Part shown: positions 1,756 to 6,095 of the stretch, one piece after another
Layout of the letters: every line of letters begins with the position of its first letter
How positions within the stretch are numbered: position 1 is the first letter of the stretch
Virus record (IMG/VR): IMGVR_UViG_3300027312_000135
DNA length: 12,244 bases
Source of the DNA: a virus
Taxonomy: Duplodnaviria > Heunggongvirae > Uroviricota > Caudoviricetes
Direction: 5' to 3' (one strand)
Made by a program: the position numbers and the translations under genes
Notes under the pieces: model-generated
Seen by the model: only the letters and a program-made list of their open reading frames with translations
Told to the model about the DNA's origin: nothing
Database searches by the model: none

Positions 1756-2675
1756 ATGAAATTTTCCTCCCACTCTCTGCGGTCGTTCCAGTGTGGAATC
1801 TGCTGCTGTGAACTGGATGGCGCGTTGCGGGCCGGCTGGCTCATCTGCGCTTTAAGGGTCGCCCACTGCTTTCGCAGCTTCGACGGGCTGAGGATGTTGG
1901 TCTGCCAGAACTGATTGCCGTTCGCCCAGGTGAAGACTTCGCAGATTTCCCGGTGGCTGACCTTCAGGGAATCGCGCATCAGGCGAATGTCGTTTGCCCA
2001 GGCTGGCCAGTTGGGTTGCTGTGCTGTCGGGGTGATCACCTGAACCTTGCTGAAAATCCACTGAGCAGCCAGAAGGTCTTCAGCGGTTCCCCACTTATCG
2101 CCCTTAGGTGAATGAACCGCTGCATCAGGCCGAACAACAGGAAGACTTTTCAGACGCTCGTCAGAGGATTCGCCAGAATTCTCGGACGTATGTTTAATGT
2201 CTTTTTTGTCTTTTGTAATAGTGTCTTTTGTGTGTCCCTGTTTTGGTGACATCCCTGTCACTGTTTTGGTGACACTTTTTGTCACTGTTTTGGTGACGGT
2301 GACACCATCTTGGTGACACTCTGGAATTTGCCACTCAGCGAGGTTCTTATTAGGCCCGATTAGCATGCCTTCCCGGACCAGAACACCCATCTGAATAAGC
2401 TCGTTTTTCGCCTTGTTCACCTTCTGCCTGGGCAGTCTGGTGAGCTGGCTTATCTGGCTGTCAGCAATGCGATCCATCTTTTTGTTGAAGCCGTATGTTT
2501 TCCGGCAAACAGCATGCGCAACCTTCGCCTGGTTCCTGGTCAGGTTGGCCCCTATCAGCTCTTCGTACAGCTCGTTTGCCAGACGCGTATATCCGTCGTC
2601 TGTGTCTGCCACACGTTGCTCCACGGCCCGGAGTTCGGGCCTGATTGGCGTTACATTTGCGAGAGCGAGGCTCAT
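1752..2675 (-). CDS. O: Lambda O-like replication initiator
   Basis: The N-terminal region (VADTDDGYTRLANELYEE...RKTYGFNKKMDRIADSQISQLTRLP...GPNKNLAEWQIPE) closely matches the lambda O N-terminal domain as I recall it. The central KTVTKTVTKSVTKTVT linker is encoded by the iteron repeats. Start overlaps the ParB-like stop. Confidence 0.9.
   Translation of the reverse strand: MSLALANVTPIRPELRAVEQRVADTDDGYTRLANELYEELIGANLTRNQAKVAHAVCRKTYGFNKKMDRIADSQISQLTRLPRQKVNKAKNELIQMGVLVREGMLIGPNKNLAEWQIPECHQDGVTVTKTVTKSVTKTVTGMSPKQGHTKDTITKDKKDIKHTSENSGESSDERLKSLPVVRPDAAVHSPKGDKWGTAEDLLAAQWIFSKVQVITPTAQQPNWPAWANDIRLMRDSLKVSHREICEVFTWANGNQFWQTNILSPSKLRKQWATLKAQMSQPARNAPSSSQQQIPHWNDRREWEENFI
2234..2317. repeat. 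Replication origin iterons inside the O gene, with adjacent AT-rich region (about 2195..2233)
   Basis: Three direct copies of the 17-mer GTCACTGTTTTGGTGAC (first copy GTCCC variant) at 2234..2250, 2257..2273 and 2281..2297, each with inverted-repeat arms, plus a degenerate fourth at about 2299..2317. A T-rich stretch (tgtcttttttgtcttttgtaatagtgtcttttgtg) lies downstream in the O reading direction, as in ori-lambda. Confidence 0.7.
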
Positions 2676-3475
2676 TTTGCCTCCTCCGGCTCTGTTGCAT
2701 CACCTAACACCCAACGGAGCGCTGCGGCGTAATCGCCGGTTGTCTCTGTCAGTGCCTGGGTAATTTCTTTGCGGGATCTCATGCGGGGTTTGCTTTCGCC
2801 CATCACGGCGCGCTGACGGCGGGCTCTTTCATGGCCCTTCGCTTCTGCACCGACTTGCGTTAGTTCTTTCACCTTGGCGCGCTGCTCTTCAGGCGGCATT
2901 GTTGACAGCTGGCGAGCATGCGTGACCGTCACCTGTCCGCCCTCTACTGCGTCCTGCACAGCCTGCGTGCAGTCCAGCAGTGCCAGGGTAGCTTTTACAG
3001 TCTGAAGGCTGCAGCCGAAAAGCAGCCCTAAATCCTGCTCATCGTGTCCGCGTTCAATCATCGCCGCCATTTTCTTTGCCCGCCCAAGGGGCGTATCGGC
3101 GCGCCGGATTTCGTTCGCGCTGACCATGTACTGGGACATGCGCACTGCCGATCCCCGCTTAGCGATTGCTGGCACGAGTACCGGTTCTTTACCTTCTGCC
3201 GCCAGGCGAATATTAGCCTCCAGGCTATGCCGGACCCGCTGACGACCGTCGACAACGCAGACCTTGCCGGATTCGGGATCTTTCCAGCACAGAACAGGCT
3301 CCAGAACGCCCTGATCCATGATGTTCAGCACCATCGCTTCGTCGATAGGCAGGTGAATGCGCTCGTCATAAAGCGGGTGTGATGGGTTGGTAACCAGGTA
3401 CAGGGCGCCCGGTTCGAAAAACAGCACGTTGCTTTTGCCGCTGGCGCCGTAAGCGTCGATTGAGTTCTTAGCCAT
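2672..3475 (-). CDS. ParB-like nuclease domain protein
   Basis: Track ORF with a GGAGG SD 5 nt before the ATG at 3475. Contains a VVDGRQRVRHSLEAN block resembling the ParB/Srx N-terminal arginine motif. Sits in the usual position between cII and O. Confidence 0.7.
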   Translation of the reverse strand: MAKNSIDAYGASGKSNVLFFEPGALYLVTNPSHPLYDERIHLPIDEAMVLNIMDQGVLEPVLCWKDPESGKVCVVDGRQRVRHSLEANIRLAAEGKEPVLVPAIAKRGSAVRMSQYMVSANEIRRADTPLGRAKKMAAMIERGHDEQDLGLLFGCSLQTVKATLALLDCTQAVQDAVEGGQVTVTHARQLSTMPPEEQRAKVKELTQVGAEAKGHERARRQRAVMGESKPRMRSRKEITQALTETTGDYAAALRWVLGDATEPEEAK

Positions 3476-3549: not shown

Positions 3550-3849
3550 TCAGGCCTCGAAGCTGTTCGCGCAGCTCGGGGCCTTTTCTTTGGTAAGAAG
3601 CTGCTCAATGCGAAGCAGTCTTTGCGCCACTTCAGATTCCGGCGACACAACATCGAGGTAAGCCATAGCGAGGCTCATCATCTGGAAGAAGCTGTGTTTC
3701 TGCATTCCCGATCTGCGCTTCATTCGGCTTATGGTCGCTTCATCCATATCAAGCACTTTCGCCAGAGTTCCTTGTCCGCGTTCAGCCAGCTTGTTCAGTA
3801 ACTGACTTTCGATTTCTCGCGCTTTTTTGCGATAACTTGCAATTTCCAT
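3550..3849 (-). CDS. cII: CII-like transcriptional activator
   Basis: Translation MEIASYRKKAREIESQLLNKLAERGQGTLAKVLDMDEATISRMKRR... parallels lambda CII (IESALLNKIA...VGVDKSQISRWKR) as recalled. Located downstream of cro and nutR. Confidence 0.8.
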   Translation of the reverse strand: MEIASYRKKAREIESQLLNKLAERGQGTLAKVLDMDEATISRMKRRSGMQKHSFFQMMSLAMAYLDVVSPESEVAQRLLRIEQLLTKEKAPSCANSFEA

Positions 3850-3912: not shown

Positions 3913-3954
3913 TCCCCACACGGGCGGGGACGGGTTTCAGAGTGTTAAAGAGCG
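3913..3954 (-). promoter_or_regulatory. nutR-like site: boxA plus boxB hairpin on the minus strand, just after cro
   Basis: Minus-strand sequence CGCTCTTTAACA (rc of 3943..3954) matches the boxA consensus, followed 12 nt later by the hairpin TCCCCGCCCGTGTGGGGA. Both elements are near-identical to the plus-strand site at 5286..5332. Confidence 0.6.
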
Positions 3955-3960
3955 GTGTTA

Positions 3961-4176
3961 CTAAGAGGCGGCTAACAGGTCTGCAAGATCAGGGCGAATC
4001 TCGAACGGTTTAACTCGACCCTGCGTGGCCTTGGATATTGCCAACACATATTTGGCATCTATGCCGCCTCCGTGTAGCCAACGCCAAACGGTCGGCTGTT
4101 TGACGCCGCAGAGATCAGCCAGCTTTTGCTGACTTCCTGCGATGTTCACAGCCCTTTGAATAGCTTTGTTAGTCAT
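3961..4176 (-). CDS. cro: Cro-like HTH repressor (YdaS/Cro family), 71 aa
   Basis: Start taken at the internal ATG 4176..4174 (MTNKAIQRAVNIAGSQQKLADLCGVKQPTVWRWL...), with an AAAGGA SD 6 nt upstream. The track's upstream extension would overlap PR and the operators. Diverges from cI. Confidence 0.75.
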   Translation of the reverse strand: MTNKAIQRAVNIAGSQQKLADLCGVKQPTVWRWLHGGGIDAKYVLAISKATQGRVKPFEIRPDLADLLAAS

Positions 4177-4207
4177 AGCAATTCCTTTACGTATTATCAC
4201 AGCAGGA

Positions 4208-4236
4208 ATAATAGCAATGAGTATTGGTAAAGGCAA
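4208..4236 (-). promoter_or_regulatory. PR-like promoter for cro (-35 TTGCCT, 17 bp spacer, -10 TATTAT on the minus strand), overlapped by ATAGCAAT operator motifs
   Basis: The rc of 4231..4236 is TTGCCT and the rc of 4208..4213 is TATTAT, with a 17 nt spacer. ATAGCAAT occurs at 4176..4183 and 4211..4218, and GCAATAGC at 4233..4240. Confidence 0.55.
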
Positions 4237-4248
4237 TAGCTTTCCACA

Positions 4249-4276
4249 TTTGACGGTTAATACGCCTAGCTATAAA
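4249..4276 (+). promoter_or_regulatory. PRM-like promoter for cI (-35 TTGACG, 16 bp spacer, -10 TATAAA), giving a leaderless or near-leaderless cI mRNA
   Basis: TTGACG at 4249..4254 and TATAAA at 4271..4276. The cI ATG at 4286 is about 10 nt past the -10, as for leaderless lambda cI from PRM. Confidence 0.5.
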
Positions 4277-4285
4277 TTGCGGGGT

Positions 4286-4909
4286 ATGAATAAAACTCTC
4301 GCAGAAAGATTGGCTAAGGCCATGCAAGAAAGGGATATGTCCCAGGGTGCTTTAGCTAAAGCATCGGGTGTAGCCCAACCAACTATCTGGCGCCTAGTCA
4401 AAGGTGAGGCCAAGGGTTCGACTCGTCTGGTTGATATTGCGCGCGCTCTGTCGGTGAGCGTTGAGTGGCTGGCTAACGGAACTGGGTCGATGGATGCTCA
4501 GGAAAAGATGACTTATCCTCAGCCACCAGCCAATGAGATGAAGCTCGGAGGGGTGTTTCCTGTTCCTGTCTTTGATCGCTCTAATGAACAAACACATGAC
4601 TATGTGTATGTCCCAAATTCAGTAGAGAGTGATAGCTGTAGAGCTTATATCTTAGAGCGAAATAGCGGGTGTTATGAAGCCCCTGCAGGAACTGTTGTCG
4701 TAGTAGACACAAAGGAAGAAGCTGGTAATGGTGATCTGGTTTACGCCAAAGTTAACGGGGCGTATTCCGTCTATAAATTTGTTGACGGCGGATCCACGGG
4801 TTATCTGTCAGTAGATGATGATCGCGTTCCTCTCGTACCTGCGACAACCGATTCATCCGTAATAGGCGTCGTCGTTTTCCTGCTGCGTGATCTGAAGCGC
4901 AAAAAGTAA
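4286..4909 (+). CDS. cI: CI-like repressor: N-terminal HTH (XRE type) plus C-terminal LexA/S24-like domain
   Basis: MNKTLAERLAKAMQERDMSQGALAKASGVAQPTIWRLVKGE is a typical HTH. The C-terminal ...ILERNSGCYEAPAGTVVVVD...VYKFVDGG parallels lambda CI VEGNSMTAP...LILVD...FKKL around the Ser/Lys region. An alternative start at 4217 is possible but would overlap both promoters. Confidence 0.85.
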   Translation: MNKTLAERLAKAMQERDMSQGALAKASGVAQPTIWRLVKGEAKGSTRLVDIARALSVSVEWLANGTGSMDAQEKMTYPQPPANEMKLGGVFPVPVFDRSNEQTHDYVYVPNSVESDSCRAYILERNSGCYEAPAGTVVVVDTKEEAGNGDLVYAKVNGAYSVYKFVDGGSTGYLSVDDDRVPLVPATTDSSVIGVVVFLLRDLKRKK

Positions 4910-4925
4910 TCCTCTTCATTTTTAG

Positions 4926-4962
4926 GGGGGGTGTATTCTGTATACCCTCCTTGCTTATTTCT
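4926..4962 (+). terminator. Candidate intrinsic terminator after cI
   Basis: Hairpin GGGGGGTGTA / loop TTCTG / TATACCCTCC (10 bp stem with 2 G.U pairs) followed by the T-rich TTGCTTATTTCT. Confidence 0.4.
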
Positions 4963-5182
4963 AAGCAAAGCCGTCGCCATAATCCCTCCCCCTTTTCAAT
5001 CAAATCAGCATTTTATATTTTGAGTCCACCCAAAACACTGTTGTTTTAAACAGTAGTTTTCATAGTGAAACACATCCTCTTATAAATCAAGCAGAGCGTG
5101 ACGCTTTTTTTCTACCCTTCTCAAATCAGTAGCTTGCCACCATAAAACACTAATTTTTTTCGATACGAAATCATTCACTTAT

Positions 5183-5242
5183 GCGTATTGCTATTGAAAT
5201 ATTACCAATACGTATTGCTATGAATAATACGCAATGCTATTG
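5183..5242. promoter_or_regulatory. OL-like operator cluster, three direct repeats (R)CG(Y)ATTGCTAT(T)G, probably overlapping PL
   Basis: GCGTATTGCTATTG at 5183..5196, ACGTATTGCTATG at 5210..5222 and ACGCAATGCTATTG at 5229..5242. The ATTGCTAT core is the reverse complement of the ATAGCAAT motifs in the cro/cI intergenic region. The PL hexamers could not be placed confidently. Confidence 0.45.
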
Positions 5243-5285
5243 TCTACCCCATCAGCAGGACGCAGTACCCAACAGGATGTTGGAT

Positions 5286-5332
5286 CGCTCTTTAACATTG
5301 ATGGGGTTTATTTCTCCCGCCCTTGTGGGAGA
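5286..5332 (+). promoter_or_regulatory. nutL-like site: boxA CGCTCTTTAACA plus boxB hairpin
   Basis: boxA at 5286..5297 is identical to the minus-strand copy at 3943..3954. The boxB hairpin TCTCCC-GCCCTTGT-GGGAGA at 5313..5332 shares the core CCCGCCC(T/G)TGTGGG with the nutR copy. Lies upstream of the N-like ORF. Confidence 0.6.
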
Positions 5333-5515
5333 CCAAAGAGCAGTTGGCTTTGGGATTGGATGAATGCGCAGGCATGGCTGGGATTAGCGAGTATTCCCGG
5401 CGTCGGCTGAAGCCGCTGGATAACAAACCCGCCTTGAGCGGTGGCAAAACCAGCGCGAGTGAACAGCGAGGAGCACCGGCCATCCAATCACCTAAGCCAA
5501 CTACCGGAGGTAAAT

Positions 5516-5785
5516 ATGTTTGCAGCTACCAACAGCGTCAGCCGTCGCTACCTCAAGCGTGGCGAACTGATCGCAAAACGCCGGGCAGAAGCGGCTGAAA
5601 GTAAAGCCCGCGTTGACGCCAGTGCTGAGCGCGTTTCGCGCGCTGTATCGGCGCCGAGCCTTCGTGAGAAACAAGACGTAGTAGCGCTACGCGTTAGTAC
5701 TAAATATCAGAAAATCAGCAACGAAGCTGGCCGTCAGATTCACGCTGTACAGAAGATCCGCGGAAAAAGCATTCCGCTTATCTAA
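5516..5785 (+). CDS. Putative N-like transcription antitermination protein (89 aa, basic, Arg-rich N-terminus)
   Basis: ATG at 5516 with a GGAGGT SD 5 nt upstream. N-terminus MFAATNSVSRRYLKRGELIAKRRAEAAESKAR is arginine-rich like an N-type ARM. First gene after nutL, with nut sites on both divergent transcripts. No sequence similarity to lambda N is claimed. Confidence 0.5.
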   Translation: MFAATNSVSRRYLKRGELIAKRRAEAAESKARVDASAERVSRAVSAPSLREKQDVVALRVSTKYQKISNEAGRQIHAVQKIRGKSIPLI

Positions 5786-6093
5786 TGGCTTTCGATCCAG
5801 TCAGTACGCTGATGAACGAGATGAAGCTGATAGAGGTTATTAGCTTCTGCTCGCCTTCCACAGTTACAGCAGATAGCGCCATGAGGGGTATTTTTTTCTG
5901 CGTCTTTGAAGGTGAACTGAAATCAGCGTGCTCCACATTCAGGGCACCGAAACTTAACACGGCCCATGAGGAGACTCCGTTTTGGTTTTGCTTAGTGATA
6001 GGTAACCCTAACATTCCTTCCAGCTTTAGCCAGCAAAAAATGAACTTACTGCCGCATAAGCGGCTTTTTTTACGCCCAAATTCAGGAGAGTAA
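5785..6093 (+). CDS. Hypothetical Cys/Phe-rich ORF (102 aa), uncertain
   Basis: ATG overlaps the N-like stop (TAATG), but the composition is odd, no SD is evident, and its 3' end contains an intrinsic terminator. Confidence 0.3.
   Translation: MAFDPVSTLMNEMKLIEVISFCSPSTVTADSAMRGIFFCVFEGELKSACSTFRAPKLNTAHEETPFWFCLVIGNPNIPSSFSQQKMNLLPHKRLFLRPNSGE
6051..6071 (+). terminator. Intrinsic terminator (GCCGC-ATAA-GCGGC followed by T7)
   Basis: Perfect 5 bp GC stem, 4 nt loop, then TTTTTTT at 6065..6071. The downstream linker ACGCCCAAATT is repeated at 10943..10953. Confidence 0.5.
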
Positions 6094-6095
6094 CG

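Follow-up and report, generated by a model that had tools for sequence, protein, structure and literature searches.

A probable lambda-type pL–nutL–N antitermination module in an uncultivated virus genome, with an arginine-rich motif associated with a pyrimidine-rich boxB loop

The region downstream of the repressor gene in a 12,244 nt viral sequence (Caudoviricetes, IMG/VR record IMGVR_UViG_3300027312_000135; this whole stretch is referred to below as the window) is very likely the leftward early control module of a temperate phage resembling lambda, probably a prophage of Pantoea. It comprises a left operator (OL) with the leftward promoter (pL), a nutL site and a gene for an N protein that would mediate antitermination of transcription. 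At about 50 related loci, the arginine-rich motif of this protein, RRYLKRGELIAKRR, appears to be coupled to a boxB whose loop is GCCNNUGU and whose stem covaries, a relationship that is a correlation between sequences and not a measure of binding. A first-pass annotation of the DNA had placed an N-like gene at the start of the early-left operon, and the gene order (cI, OL, N, then cIII, exonuclease and RecT) agrees with that placement. Every element listed in that annotation was recovered, either exactly where it had been put or only a few bases away. The coordinates of all features are collected in Table 1.

Both early transcripts carry a boxA and a boxB hairpin in the canonical positions and orientations, upstream of N on one side and after cro on the other. 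The nutL site had already been recognised (boxA at 5286–5297, boxB at 5313–5332); the matching nutR had been missed. Exact copies of the boxA sequence CGCTCTTTAACA occur in the window only at 5286–5297 and, on the minus strand, at 3954–3943, and the nutL boxA also matches the nut boxA of phage 21 and of an E. coli prophage in both sequence and position. The nutL boxB is predicted to fold into an 8 bp stem with a CCUU loop. At nutR the loop is of the same type, with one base changed, and two stem pairs are swapped compensatorily relative to nutL (U-A to C-G, and C-G to U-A). No intrinsic terminator was found on the minus strand between nutR and P, a result that would fit a Rho-dependent tR1 like that of lambda.

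The open reading frame (ORF) that follows nutL encodes a basic protein of 89 amino acids (aa), with a predicted isoelectric point (pI) of 11.2 and arginine or lysine at 8 of the first 30 positions. The GGAGG Shine-Dalgarno sequence lies five bases before the ATG. The length, basic character, strong Shine-Dalgarno sequence and arginine-rich N-terminus were as first described, but the accompanying remark that the protein has no obvious similarity to lambda N was not upheld. Its last 28 residues are 54% identical to those of lambda N (15/28; residues 62–89 against lambda 81–107, taken from NC_001416; E = 2e-5), and the two proteins end in KIRGKSIPLI and KIKGKSIPLI, respectively. Residues 73–107 of lambda N are the RNA-polymerase-binding domain (PMC3526286), and, by sequence similarity to residues 81–107 within that domain, a putative polymerase-binding region is present here. 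The whole protein aligns collinearly with phage 21 N; across 85 aa the identity is 35% (pairwise E = 4e-5). The phage 21 sequence used was verified to be 100% identical to the N protein of phage DE3. It also matches PHROG 271, 'anti-termination protein N-like', over residues 4–88 (E = 3.8e-6). Because of the PHROG 271 match and the alignments to the lambda C-terminus and to phage 21 N, the ORF is, as judged by sequence, a true homologue of N and not an analogue. Of the earlier proposal of a divergent N analogue, the identification as N therefore stands, and the word analogue does not.

The N protein is laid out as an arginine-rich motif (approximately residues 6–26), a central RV.RA..(x)SLR motif and a lambda-type C-terminus. 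In the central region, the candidate for NusA binding, the alignment has a short RV..A motif in common, and A43 is invariant across 24 homologues; lambda and phage 21 were included in a separate comparison. Residues 1–58 are 88% identical to Pantoea proteins, the cluster representative of which (P0012) passes the Pfam N_peptide model, while the last 50 or so residues are about 60–80% identical to Pantoea N proteins carrying lambda N36 or P22-type motifs. An AlphaFold2 model, of limited value given its scores, shows a long N-terminal helix (residues 7–45) and no globular fold (predicted template modelling score 0.27; predicted local distance difference test, pLDDT, 70), and a modelled helix of this kind is as expected for an N protein.

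The N leader is predicted to form a long-range stem, with a 5′ arm (boxC-like, GGCUUUGGGAUUGGAUG) positioned right after boxB, and a 3′ arm (CCAUCCAAUCACCUAAGCC) that ends just upstream of the Shine-Dalgarno sequence. The equivalent stem of the lambda leader is formed by GGCUUUGGGGUGUGUG with CACACACCACCAAAGC. The two stems have the same sequence in their proximal half; in the distal half they differ, yet complementarity is kept. The lambda stem is an RNase III-sensitive structure that modulates translation of N and, by analogy, the stem described here probably has a part in controlling both the translation of N and cleavage by RNase III.

Downstream of N, four hairpins with T tracts are found on the plus strand, with fold-energy z-scores of −2.9 to −5.5. 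At least three terminators had been proposed in this part of the operon; those starting at 6051, 6459 and 10920 were recovered within a few bases of the positions first given, and a fourth, at 11984, can be added. A 102 aa ORF (5785–6093, plus strand) begins on the stop codon of N, with a ATCTAATGG overlap, and crosses the 6051–6064 hairpin before reaching its own stop. It gave a borderline Pfam match to DUF1619_N, exactly at threshold, which is probably due to chance.

The three direct OL repeats reported previously were confirmed. The sequence ATRCGYAWTGCTAT is present in direct copies at 5181–5194, 5208–5221 and 5227–5240, and the motif is shared with the right operator (OR). When up to three mismatches are allowed, there are nine matches in the 12.2 kb window, eight of which lie in the OL cluster or in the cro–cI intergenic region (4175–4273); none of 200 shuffles gave nine matches. 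A 20 bp near-palindrome, TTACCAATACGTATTGCTAT (5202–5221), has the middle copy as its right half and is found again, inverted, at 4211–4230 (18/20). As the motif occurs in both OL and OR, the copies are likely to be operators of one repressor, as in lambda.

Both hexamers of the pL-like promoter lie within operators, namely the two promoter-proximal ones. Beginning at A5251, 7 bases downstream of the −10 hexamer, is a block (ATCAGCAGGACGCA) identical to the block after lambda OL1, and it is also present in phage 21 (at the equivalent position), in an E. coli prophage and in several other lambdoid loci. In lambda this block is the start of the pL transcript; by homology, the +1 position here would be near 5251. 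On the other side of the repressor gene, the pRM-like promoter ends 7 nt 5′ of the cI ATG (4286) and is overlapped by the operator copy at 4258–4273. Given this distance, the cI mRNA would be leaderless, like that of lambda cI from pRM. A strong hairpin (4909–4955, plus strand, −18.8 kcal/mol) is found just 3′ of the cI stop codon and a weaker terminator-like site at 5093–5107, and these two probably shield pL from transcription running on from the repressor gene. No rex-like gene is present in the 270 bp spacer between cI and OL.

The 71 homologues of N sort into modules. The motif NSV[ST]RRYLKRGEL[IM]AKRR is found on lambda-, phage 21- or P22-type C-termini (in Pantoea, Klebsiella oxytoca, Salmonella, Citrobacter and others), and the C-terminal half of the window N (...SLREK...STKYQKVSNEAGRQIHAVQKxRGKSIPLI) is found also on lambda-N36-like, H-19B-like, NARNRRRAKR-type and NNKQRKKLQR-type N-termini. 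In databases, these homologues are named 'regulator', 'hypothetical protein' or 'transcriptional antitermination N peptide'. Genomic loci were searched for with the alignment of same-motif proteins (A2), the broader alignment (A1) being too diverse. Nine loci were found through the protein motif alone, eight of them with an intact N gene, and all eight show a boxA followed by a hairpin with the loop GCC(C/U/A)NUGU on stems of UCUCCC, UCCCC, UCUCC or UCUCCU. At the ninth (L009), N is truncated and the nutL hairpin is absent from the stretch examined. Modules of this type do, then, decay, and the one in the window could likewise be a remnant in a defective prophage, with recognisable sites and ORF but no antitermination. 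We regard this as quite improbable. The elements in the window are all intact and in register, including both nut sites, the N ORF is full length, an identical N is present in the protein collection on three metagenome contigs (with 84–93% identical copies elsewhere), and the neighbouring early genes are all open and all score above the Pfam thresholds.

The association was also examined in the reverse direction, by scanning viral contigs for boxA plus GCCNNTGT. This returned 120 loci, which were divided according to whether the loop is flanked by a stem of at least 4 bp. A protein with the motif RRYx[KQR]RGE was encoded at 40 of the 51 loci where the loop sits on such a stem, and at none of the 69 where there is no stem. 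Eleven stem-positive loci had no motif in the stretch examined; the two that were looked at (L088 and L138) have a cII-like gene downstream, as at nutR. Among 31 distinct hairpins, four stem pairs vary on both sides, giving 43 covarying cells compared with 16 ± 4.5 after shuffling, and slid registers score far lower. Within the group, the subclass TRRYRQRGE[LV]MA[KR]RR pairs with UCUCCU-GCCA[AG]UGU-AGGAGA. The genera whose prophages and viral contigs show the pairing include Pantoea, Klebsiella, Salmonella, Citrobacter and Leclercia.

Loci in which the C-terminus and leader are the same as, or similar to, those of the window N, and which carry other arginine-rich motifs, served as controls, and their boxB loops differ. 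A lambda-like motif (MNAQERRRAARAEKQ) is accompanied by boxB GCGCUGAAAAAGCGC and GCCCUGAAAAAGGGC (GAAAA) at L017; NARNRRRAKR-type motifs by the loop CGAAAU (L015, the E. coli T43 prophage, Erwinia phage 49 and Pantoea phage PA-1); NNKQRKKLQR by boxB UGAUUC or UGUUUC (L013); a P22-type motif (GNAKTRRHERRRK) by boxB GCGCUGACAAAGCGC; and the phage 21 motif by a CUAACC loop at both nut sites. Among proteins with the same C-terminus, four other motif types go with other loops. Motif and loop thus switch together, as cognate recognition predicts.

This co-variation also bears on whether the ORF might encode a Nun-like exclusion factor, an arginine-rich protein that would recognise boxB in the RNA of a competitor and stop transcription of that phage instead of antiterminating its own. 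The ORF has the first position in the pL operon and an arginine-rich N-terminus, like HK022 Nun, and some phages (mEp235) have both N and Nun at this place. The candidate was rejected as very unlikely: no alignment with the mEp235 Nun-like protein was obtained at E ≤ 100, the C-terminus is of lambda-N type, the two early operons of the phage itself have matching boxA–boxB pairs in canonical positions, so that it carries its own cognate nut sites, and motif and loop co-vary within genomes, as would be expected for self-recognition. It is also hardly credible that the 5313–5332 hairpin is an incidental or structural part of the leader to which no protein binds, with boxA and Nus factors acting alone or the RNA itself acting in the manner of HK022 put, for although the pyrimidine-rich loop is unlike the GNRA-like loops of lambda and P22 or the CUAACC loop of phage 21 (PMC12550061), the same loop type recurs at nutL and nutR with compensatory stem changes, and it switches with the N-terminal motif while the remaining leader and the C-terminus stay constant.

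Several points weigh against N-mediated antitermination paired with this boxB type, or limit how far the case extends. The elements, the homology and the motif–loop co-variation are read directly from sequence; binding, dependence on Nus factors and read-through are what we infer from them. In the viral contigs, the conservation of the loop and its pairing arise partly by construction, because that set was picked by loop pattern and stem filter, and the Fisher p value of 4e-22 for the association (40/51 versus 0/69) overstates independence, because the loci are related; the unbiased part of the pairing evidence is the protein-anchored set. The N protein passes no NCBIfam model and no Pfam model (none at E ≤ 1), those models being built on either the lambda motif or the complete P22-type protein, whereas this N is another mosaic, with a motif outside N36 joined to a lambda-type C-terminus outside PF25694. 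Same-motif relatives in which the C-terminus is P22-type score above the PF25694 threshold (P0012 at 45 bits and P0066 at 49 bits). A phmmer search of N against PDB sequences gave a chance match only and did not retrieve lambda N. The pL hexamers agree with consensus at 8/12 positions, below the 9/12 threshold, and so were missed by the promoter scan. Lastly, the 6051 terminator lies inside ORF 5785–6093, so either the end of that ORF or the terminator may be less real.

If the locus works as an N-dependent module, the following sequence of events can be proposed from the lambda paradigm (PMC3526286, PMC2724277). In a lysogen, the cI-type repressor (4286–4909) would bind the three OL operators and silence pL. 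Upon induction, transcription would start near 5251, and on the nascent RNA, boxA (5286–5297) would be bound by host NusB and NusE (S10), and boxB (5313–5332) by the N-terminal helix of N. The central region of N would contact NusA and its lambda-type C-terminus would contact RNA polymerase, giving a termination-resistant complex. The modified polymerase could then pass the terminators at 6051, 6459, 10920 and 11984, so that cIII, the exonuclease/RecT recombination pair and the genes beyond them would be expressed. On the minus strand, nutR (3913–3954) would act likewise on the rightward operon (cII, O and P), carrying polymerase past Rho-dependent or other terminators.

The pairing of this motif with this loop has a restricted known distribution. 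Two protein searches of a collection of 50,697 GenBank phage records found no phage with the motif. A tblastn search with N returned nothing at E ≤ 0.01 from these records, and a megablast search with the region found no match in them. When a Salmonella homologue was searched against the phage collection, only phages sharing the central or C-terminal part were recovered, and the two matches that reached the N-terminus both have P22-type motifs. Within the scope of the two protein searches, the pairing is known solely from prophages and uncultivated viral contigs. No description of this motif/boxB type, or of Pantoea N proteins, was found in the literature searched. The motif RRY[LR][KQ]RGE[LV][IM]A[KR]RR together with the boxB loop GCCNNUGU would accordingly represent an N/boxB specificity type new to the searched literature, a modest novelty. 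Its protein component is related to that of phage 21, and its RNA component resembles no boxB that has been solved.

The N–boxB pairs are a classic model of RNA recognition by arginine-rich peptides and are widely used for tethering proteins to RNA. Solved complexes of three pairs (lambda, P22 and phage 21) were found in the literature. The window locus and its approximately 50 relatives represent one more pairing, in which the loop is very different, and they offer a candidate orthogonal peptide–RNA pair. We put forward tentatively, as a proposal with slightly under an even chance of being correct, that recognition between the RRYLKRGELIAKRR-type motif and the GCCNNUGU boxB is structurally distinct. 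The loop would be of a pyrimidine-rich CNNU kind, free at two positions and carried on an invariant C-G / G.U platform, with a fold that is not GNRA-like, and the pair would be orthogonal to those of lambda, P22 and phage 21. If so, it would provide a new mode of recognition by an arginine-rich motif and a new tethering tool. The family is also a clear case, from nature, of modular exchange, in which the specificity modules (N-terminal motif and boxB) are replaced while the effector C-terminus stays constant. For phage biology the locus is ordinary, a standard lambda-type early control circuit. A second, apparently uncharacterised pairing was noticed, in which (D/T)(N/A)(A/K)RNRRRA(K/R)R occurs with boxB CCCGC-CGAAAU-GCGGG; the loci are L001 (the E. 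coli T43 prophage), L015, L144 (Erwinia phage vB_EhrS_49) and L146 (Pantoea phage PA-1), and the N gene of E. coli T43 is annotated simply as 'hypothetical protein'.

Table 1. Features of the early region, in order along the window.
Feature	Position	Strand	Details
P	1063–1773	minus	
O	1752–2675	minus	internal iteron-like repeats
ParB-HTH gene	2672–3475	minus	
cII	3550–3849	minus	
nutR boxB	3913–3930	minus	UCCCC-GCCCGUGU-GGGGA
nutR boxA	3943–3954	minus	12-mer identical to nutL boxA; begins 7 nt past the cro stop
cro-type gene	3961–4176	minus	71 aa
OR region	4177–4285		operator motif at 4211–4230 and 4258–4273, plus weaker copies
pR-like promoter	−35 at 4236–4231; −10 at 4213–4208	minus	
pRM-like promoter	−35 at 4250–4255; −10 at 4273–4278	plus	TTGACG, 17 nt, TAAATT
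cI-type repressor gene	4286–4909	plus	HTH_3 and Peptidase_S24
OL	5175–5240		three repressor operators
pL-like promoter	5215–5251	plus	−35 TTGCTA (5215–5220), 17 nt spacer, −10 TATTGT (5238–5243)
nutL boxA	5286–5297	plus	CGCUCUUUAACA
nutL boxB hairpin	5313–5332	plus	UCUCCC-GCCCUUGU-GGGAGA
Long-range N-leader stem (predicted)	5343–5501	plus	5′ arm 5343–5362, 3′ arm 5481–5501
Shine-Dalgarno of N	5506–5510	plus	GGAGG
N	5516–5785	plus	89 aa plus stop
Two small ORFs	5785–6368	plus	
Terminator 1	6051–6071	plus	−9.6 kcal/mol, run of seven U; first downstream of N
Terminator 2	6459–6491	plus	−21.3 kcal/mol, strongest; just upstream of cIII
cIII	6523–6660	plus	PF02061
PDDEXK exonuclease	7078–7899	plus	
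RecT	7896–8798	plus	
Terminator 3	10920–10944	plus	−11.7 kcal/mol
Dam methylase	11387–11959	plus	
Terminator 4	11984–12014	plus	−15.5 kcal/mol; after the Dam methylase gene

The window as a whole is a complete lambda-type immunity and early region, laid out as a mirror image of the lambda map, and its closest genomic relatives are Pantoea prophages. The gene order, P-O-ParB-cII-cro on one side and cI-N-...-cIII-exo-RecT on the other, follows the lambda plan. A scan of the whole window with Rfam found nothing relevant. The gene of the ParB-HTH family between cII and O is foreign to the lambda plan and is common to the relatives L015 and L020. Inside O, a tandem 24 bp (or 12 bp) repeat, TGTCACTGTTTTGGTGACAC..., at 2233–2297 codes for TVTKTVTKSVTKTVT, and by analogy with the lambda ori, which lies within O, it looks like a set of origin iterons.

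Three tandem, small paralogous ORFs (52, 47 and 47 aa) are located at 8864–9335 on the minus strand. Each carries a C-terminal ...QVTQP(A/V)PPPKKP and repeated 'GYQPK/GYKP' motifs. A low guanine-plus-cytosine (GC) island within the pL operon extends from 9000 to 10900 (36–39%, compared with 52–60% in the flanks), and contains a gene for a DUF6338 membrane protein on the minus strand (9356–9943) and a 220 aa ORF on the plus strand (10243–10905), for which no match was found with Pfam or PADLOC. A PADLOC scan of the neighbouring unknown ORFs, including the 8864–9335 paralogues, also gave no match. Bounded by the 10920 terminator, the island looks like an inserted moron.

Of the known systems, HK022 Nun resembles the present N in being a small arginine-rich protein at the start of the pL operon; the differences are that no sequence similarity to a Nun-like protein is seen, and that the window genome has cognate nut sites.

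The likeness to lambda extends over the whole order of elements: cI, an OL with three operators, pL, boxA, boxB, a long leader stem with a boxC-like arm, N, terminators, and the cIII and recombination genes, with nutR just after cro. The ATCAGCAGGACGCA block is identical, as is the pattern K-I-(R/K)-G-K-S-I-P-L-I that ends the conserved last 28 residues of N. The arginine-rich motifs, by contrast, are unrelated (MDAQTRRRERRAEKQAQW in lambda, NSVSRRYLKRGELIAKRR here), and the lambda boxB, GCCCUGAAGAAGGGC, has a pentaloop (GAAGA at nutL or GAAAA at nutR), in contrast to UCUCCC-GCCCUUGU-GGGAGA in the window. The boxA is CGCUCUUAA in lambda and CGCUCUUUAACA here, the latter being closer to the rrn-type consensus. 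Lambda N is longer (107 aa compared with 89 aa), and the window has no rexAB between cI and OL.

Phage 21 (and likewise DE3) is related on the protein side. The arginine-rich motifs align without gaps (SRRYLKRGELIAKRR and SRYKARRAELIAERR; 9/15 identities) and are related but clearly diverged. The boxA is GCTCTTTAACA, and the nutL stem begins with UCUC in both. The boxB of phage 21 has a CUAACC hexaloop at both nut sites (loop taken from the DE3 sequence and PMC12550061, which cites PDB 1NYB), whereas the loop described here is GCCNNUGU, which can alternatively be read as a CNNU tetraloop above C-G and G.U pairs; the two loops in the window are GCCCUUGU and GCCCGUGU, not the CUAACC hexaloop of the phage 21-type specificity class. 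The C-termini also differ, LGSKPLI in phage 21 and the lambda-type GKSIPLI here. Among the Pfam families, the window N has its place between PF25694 (N_peptide, P22-type N) and PF11438 (N36), since it joins this motif to a C-terminus of lambda type.

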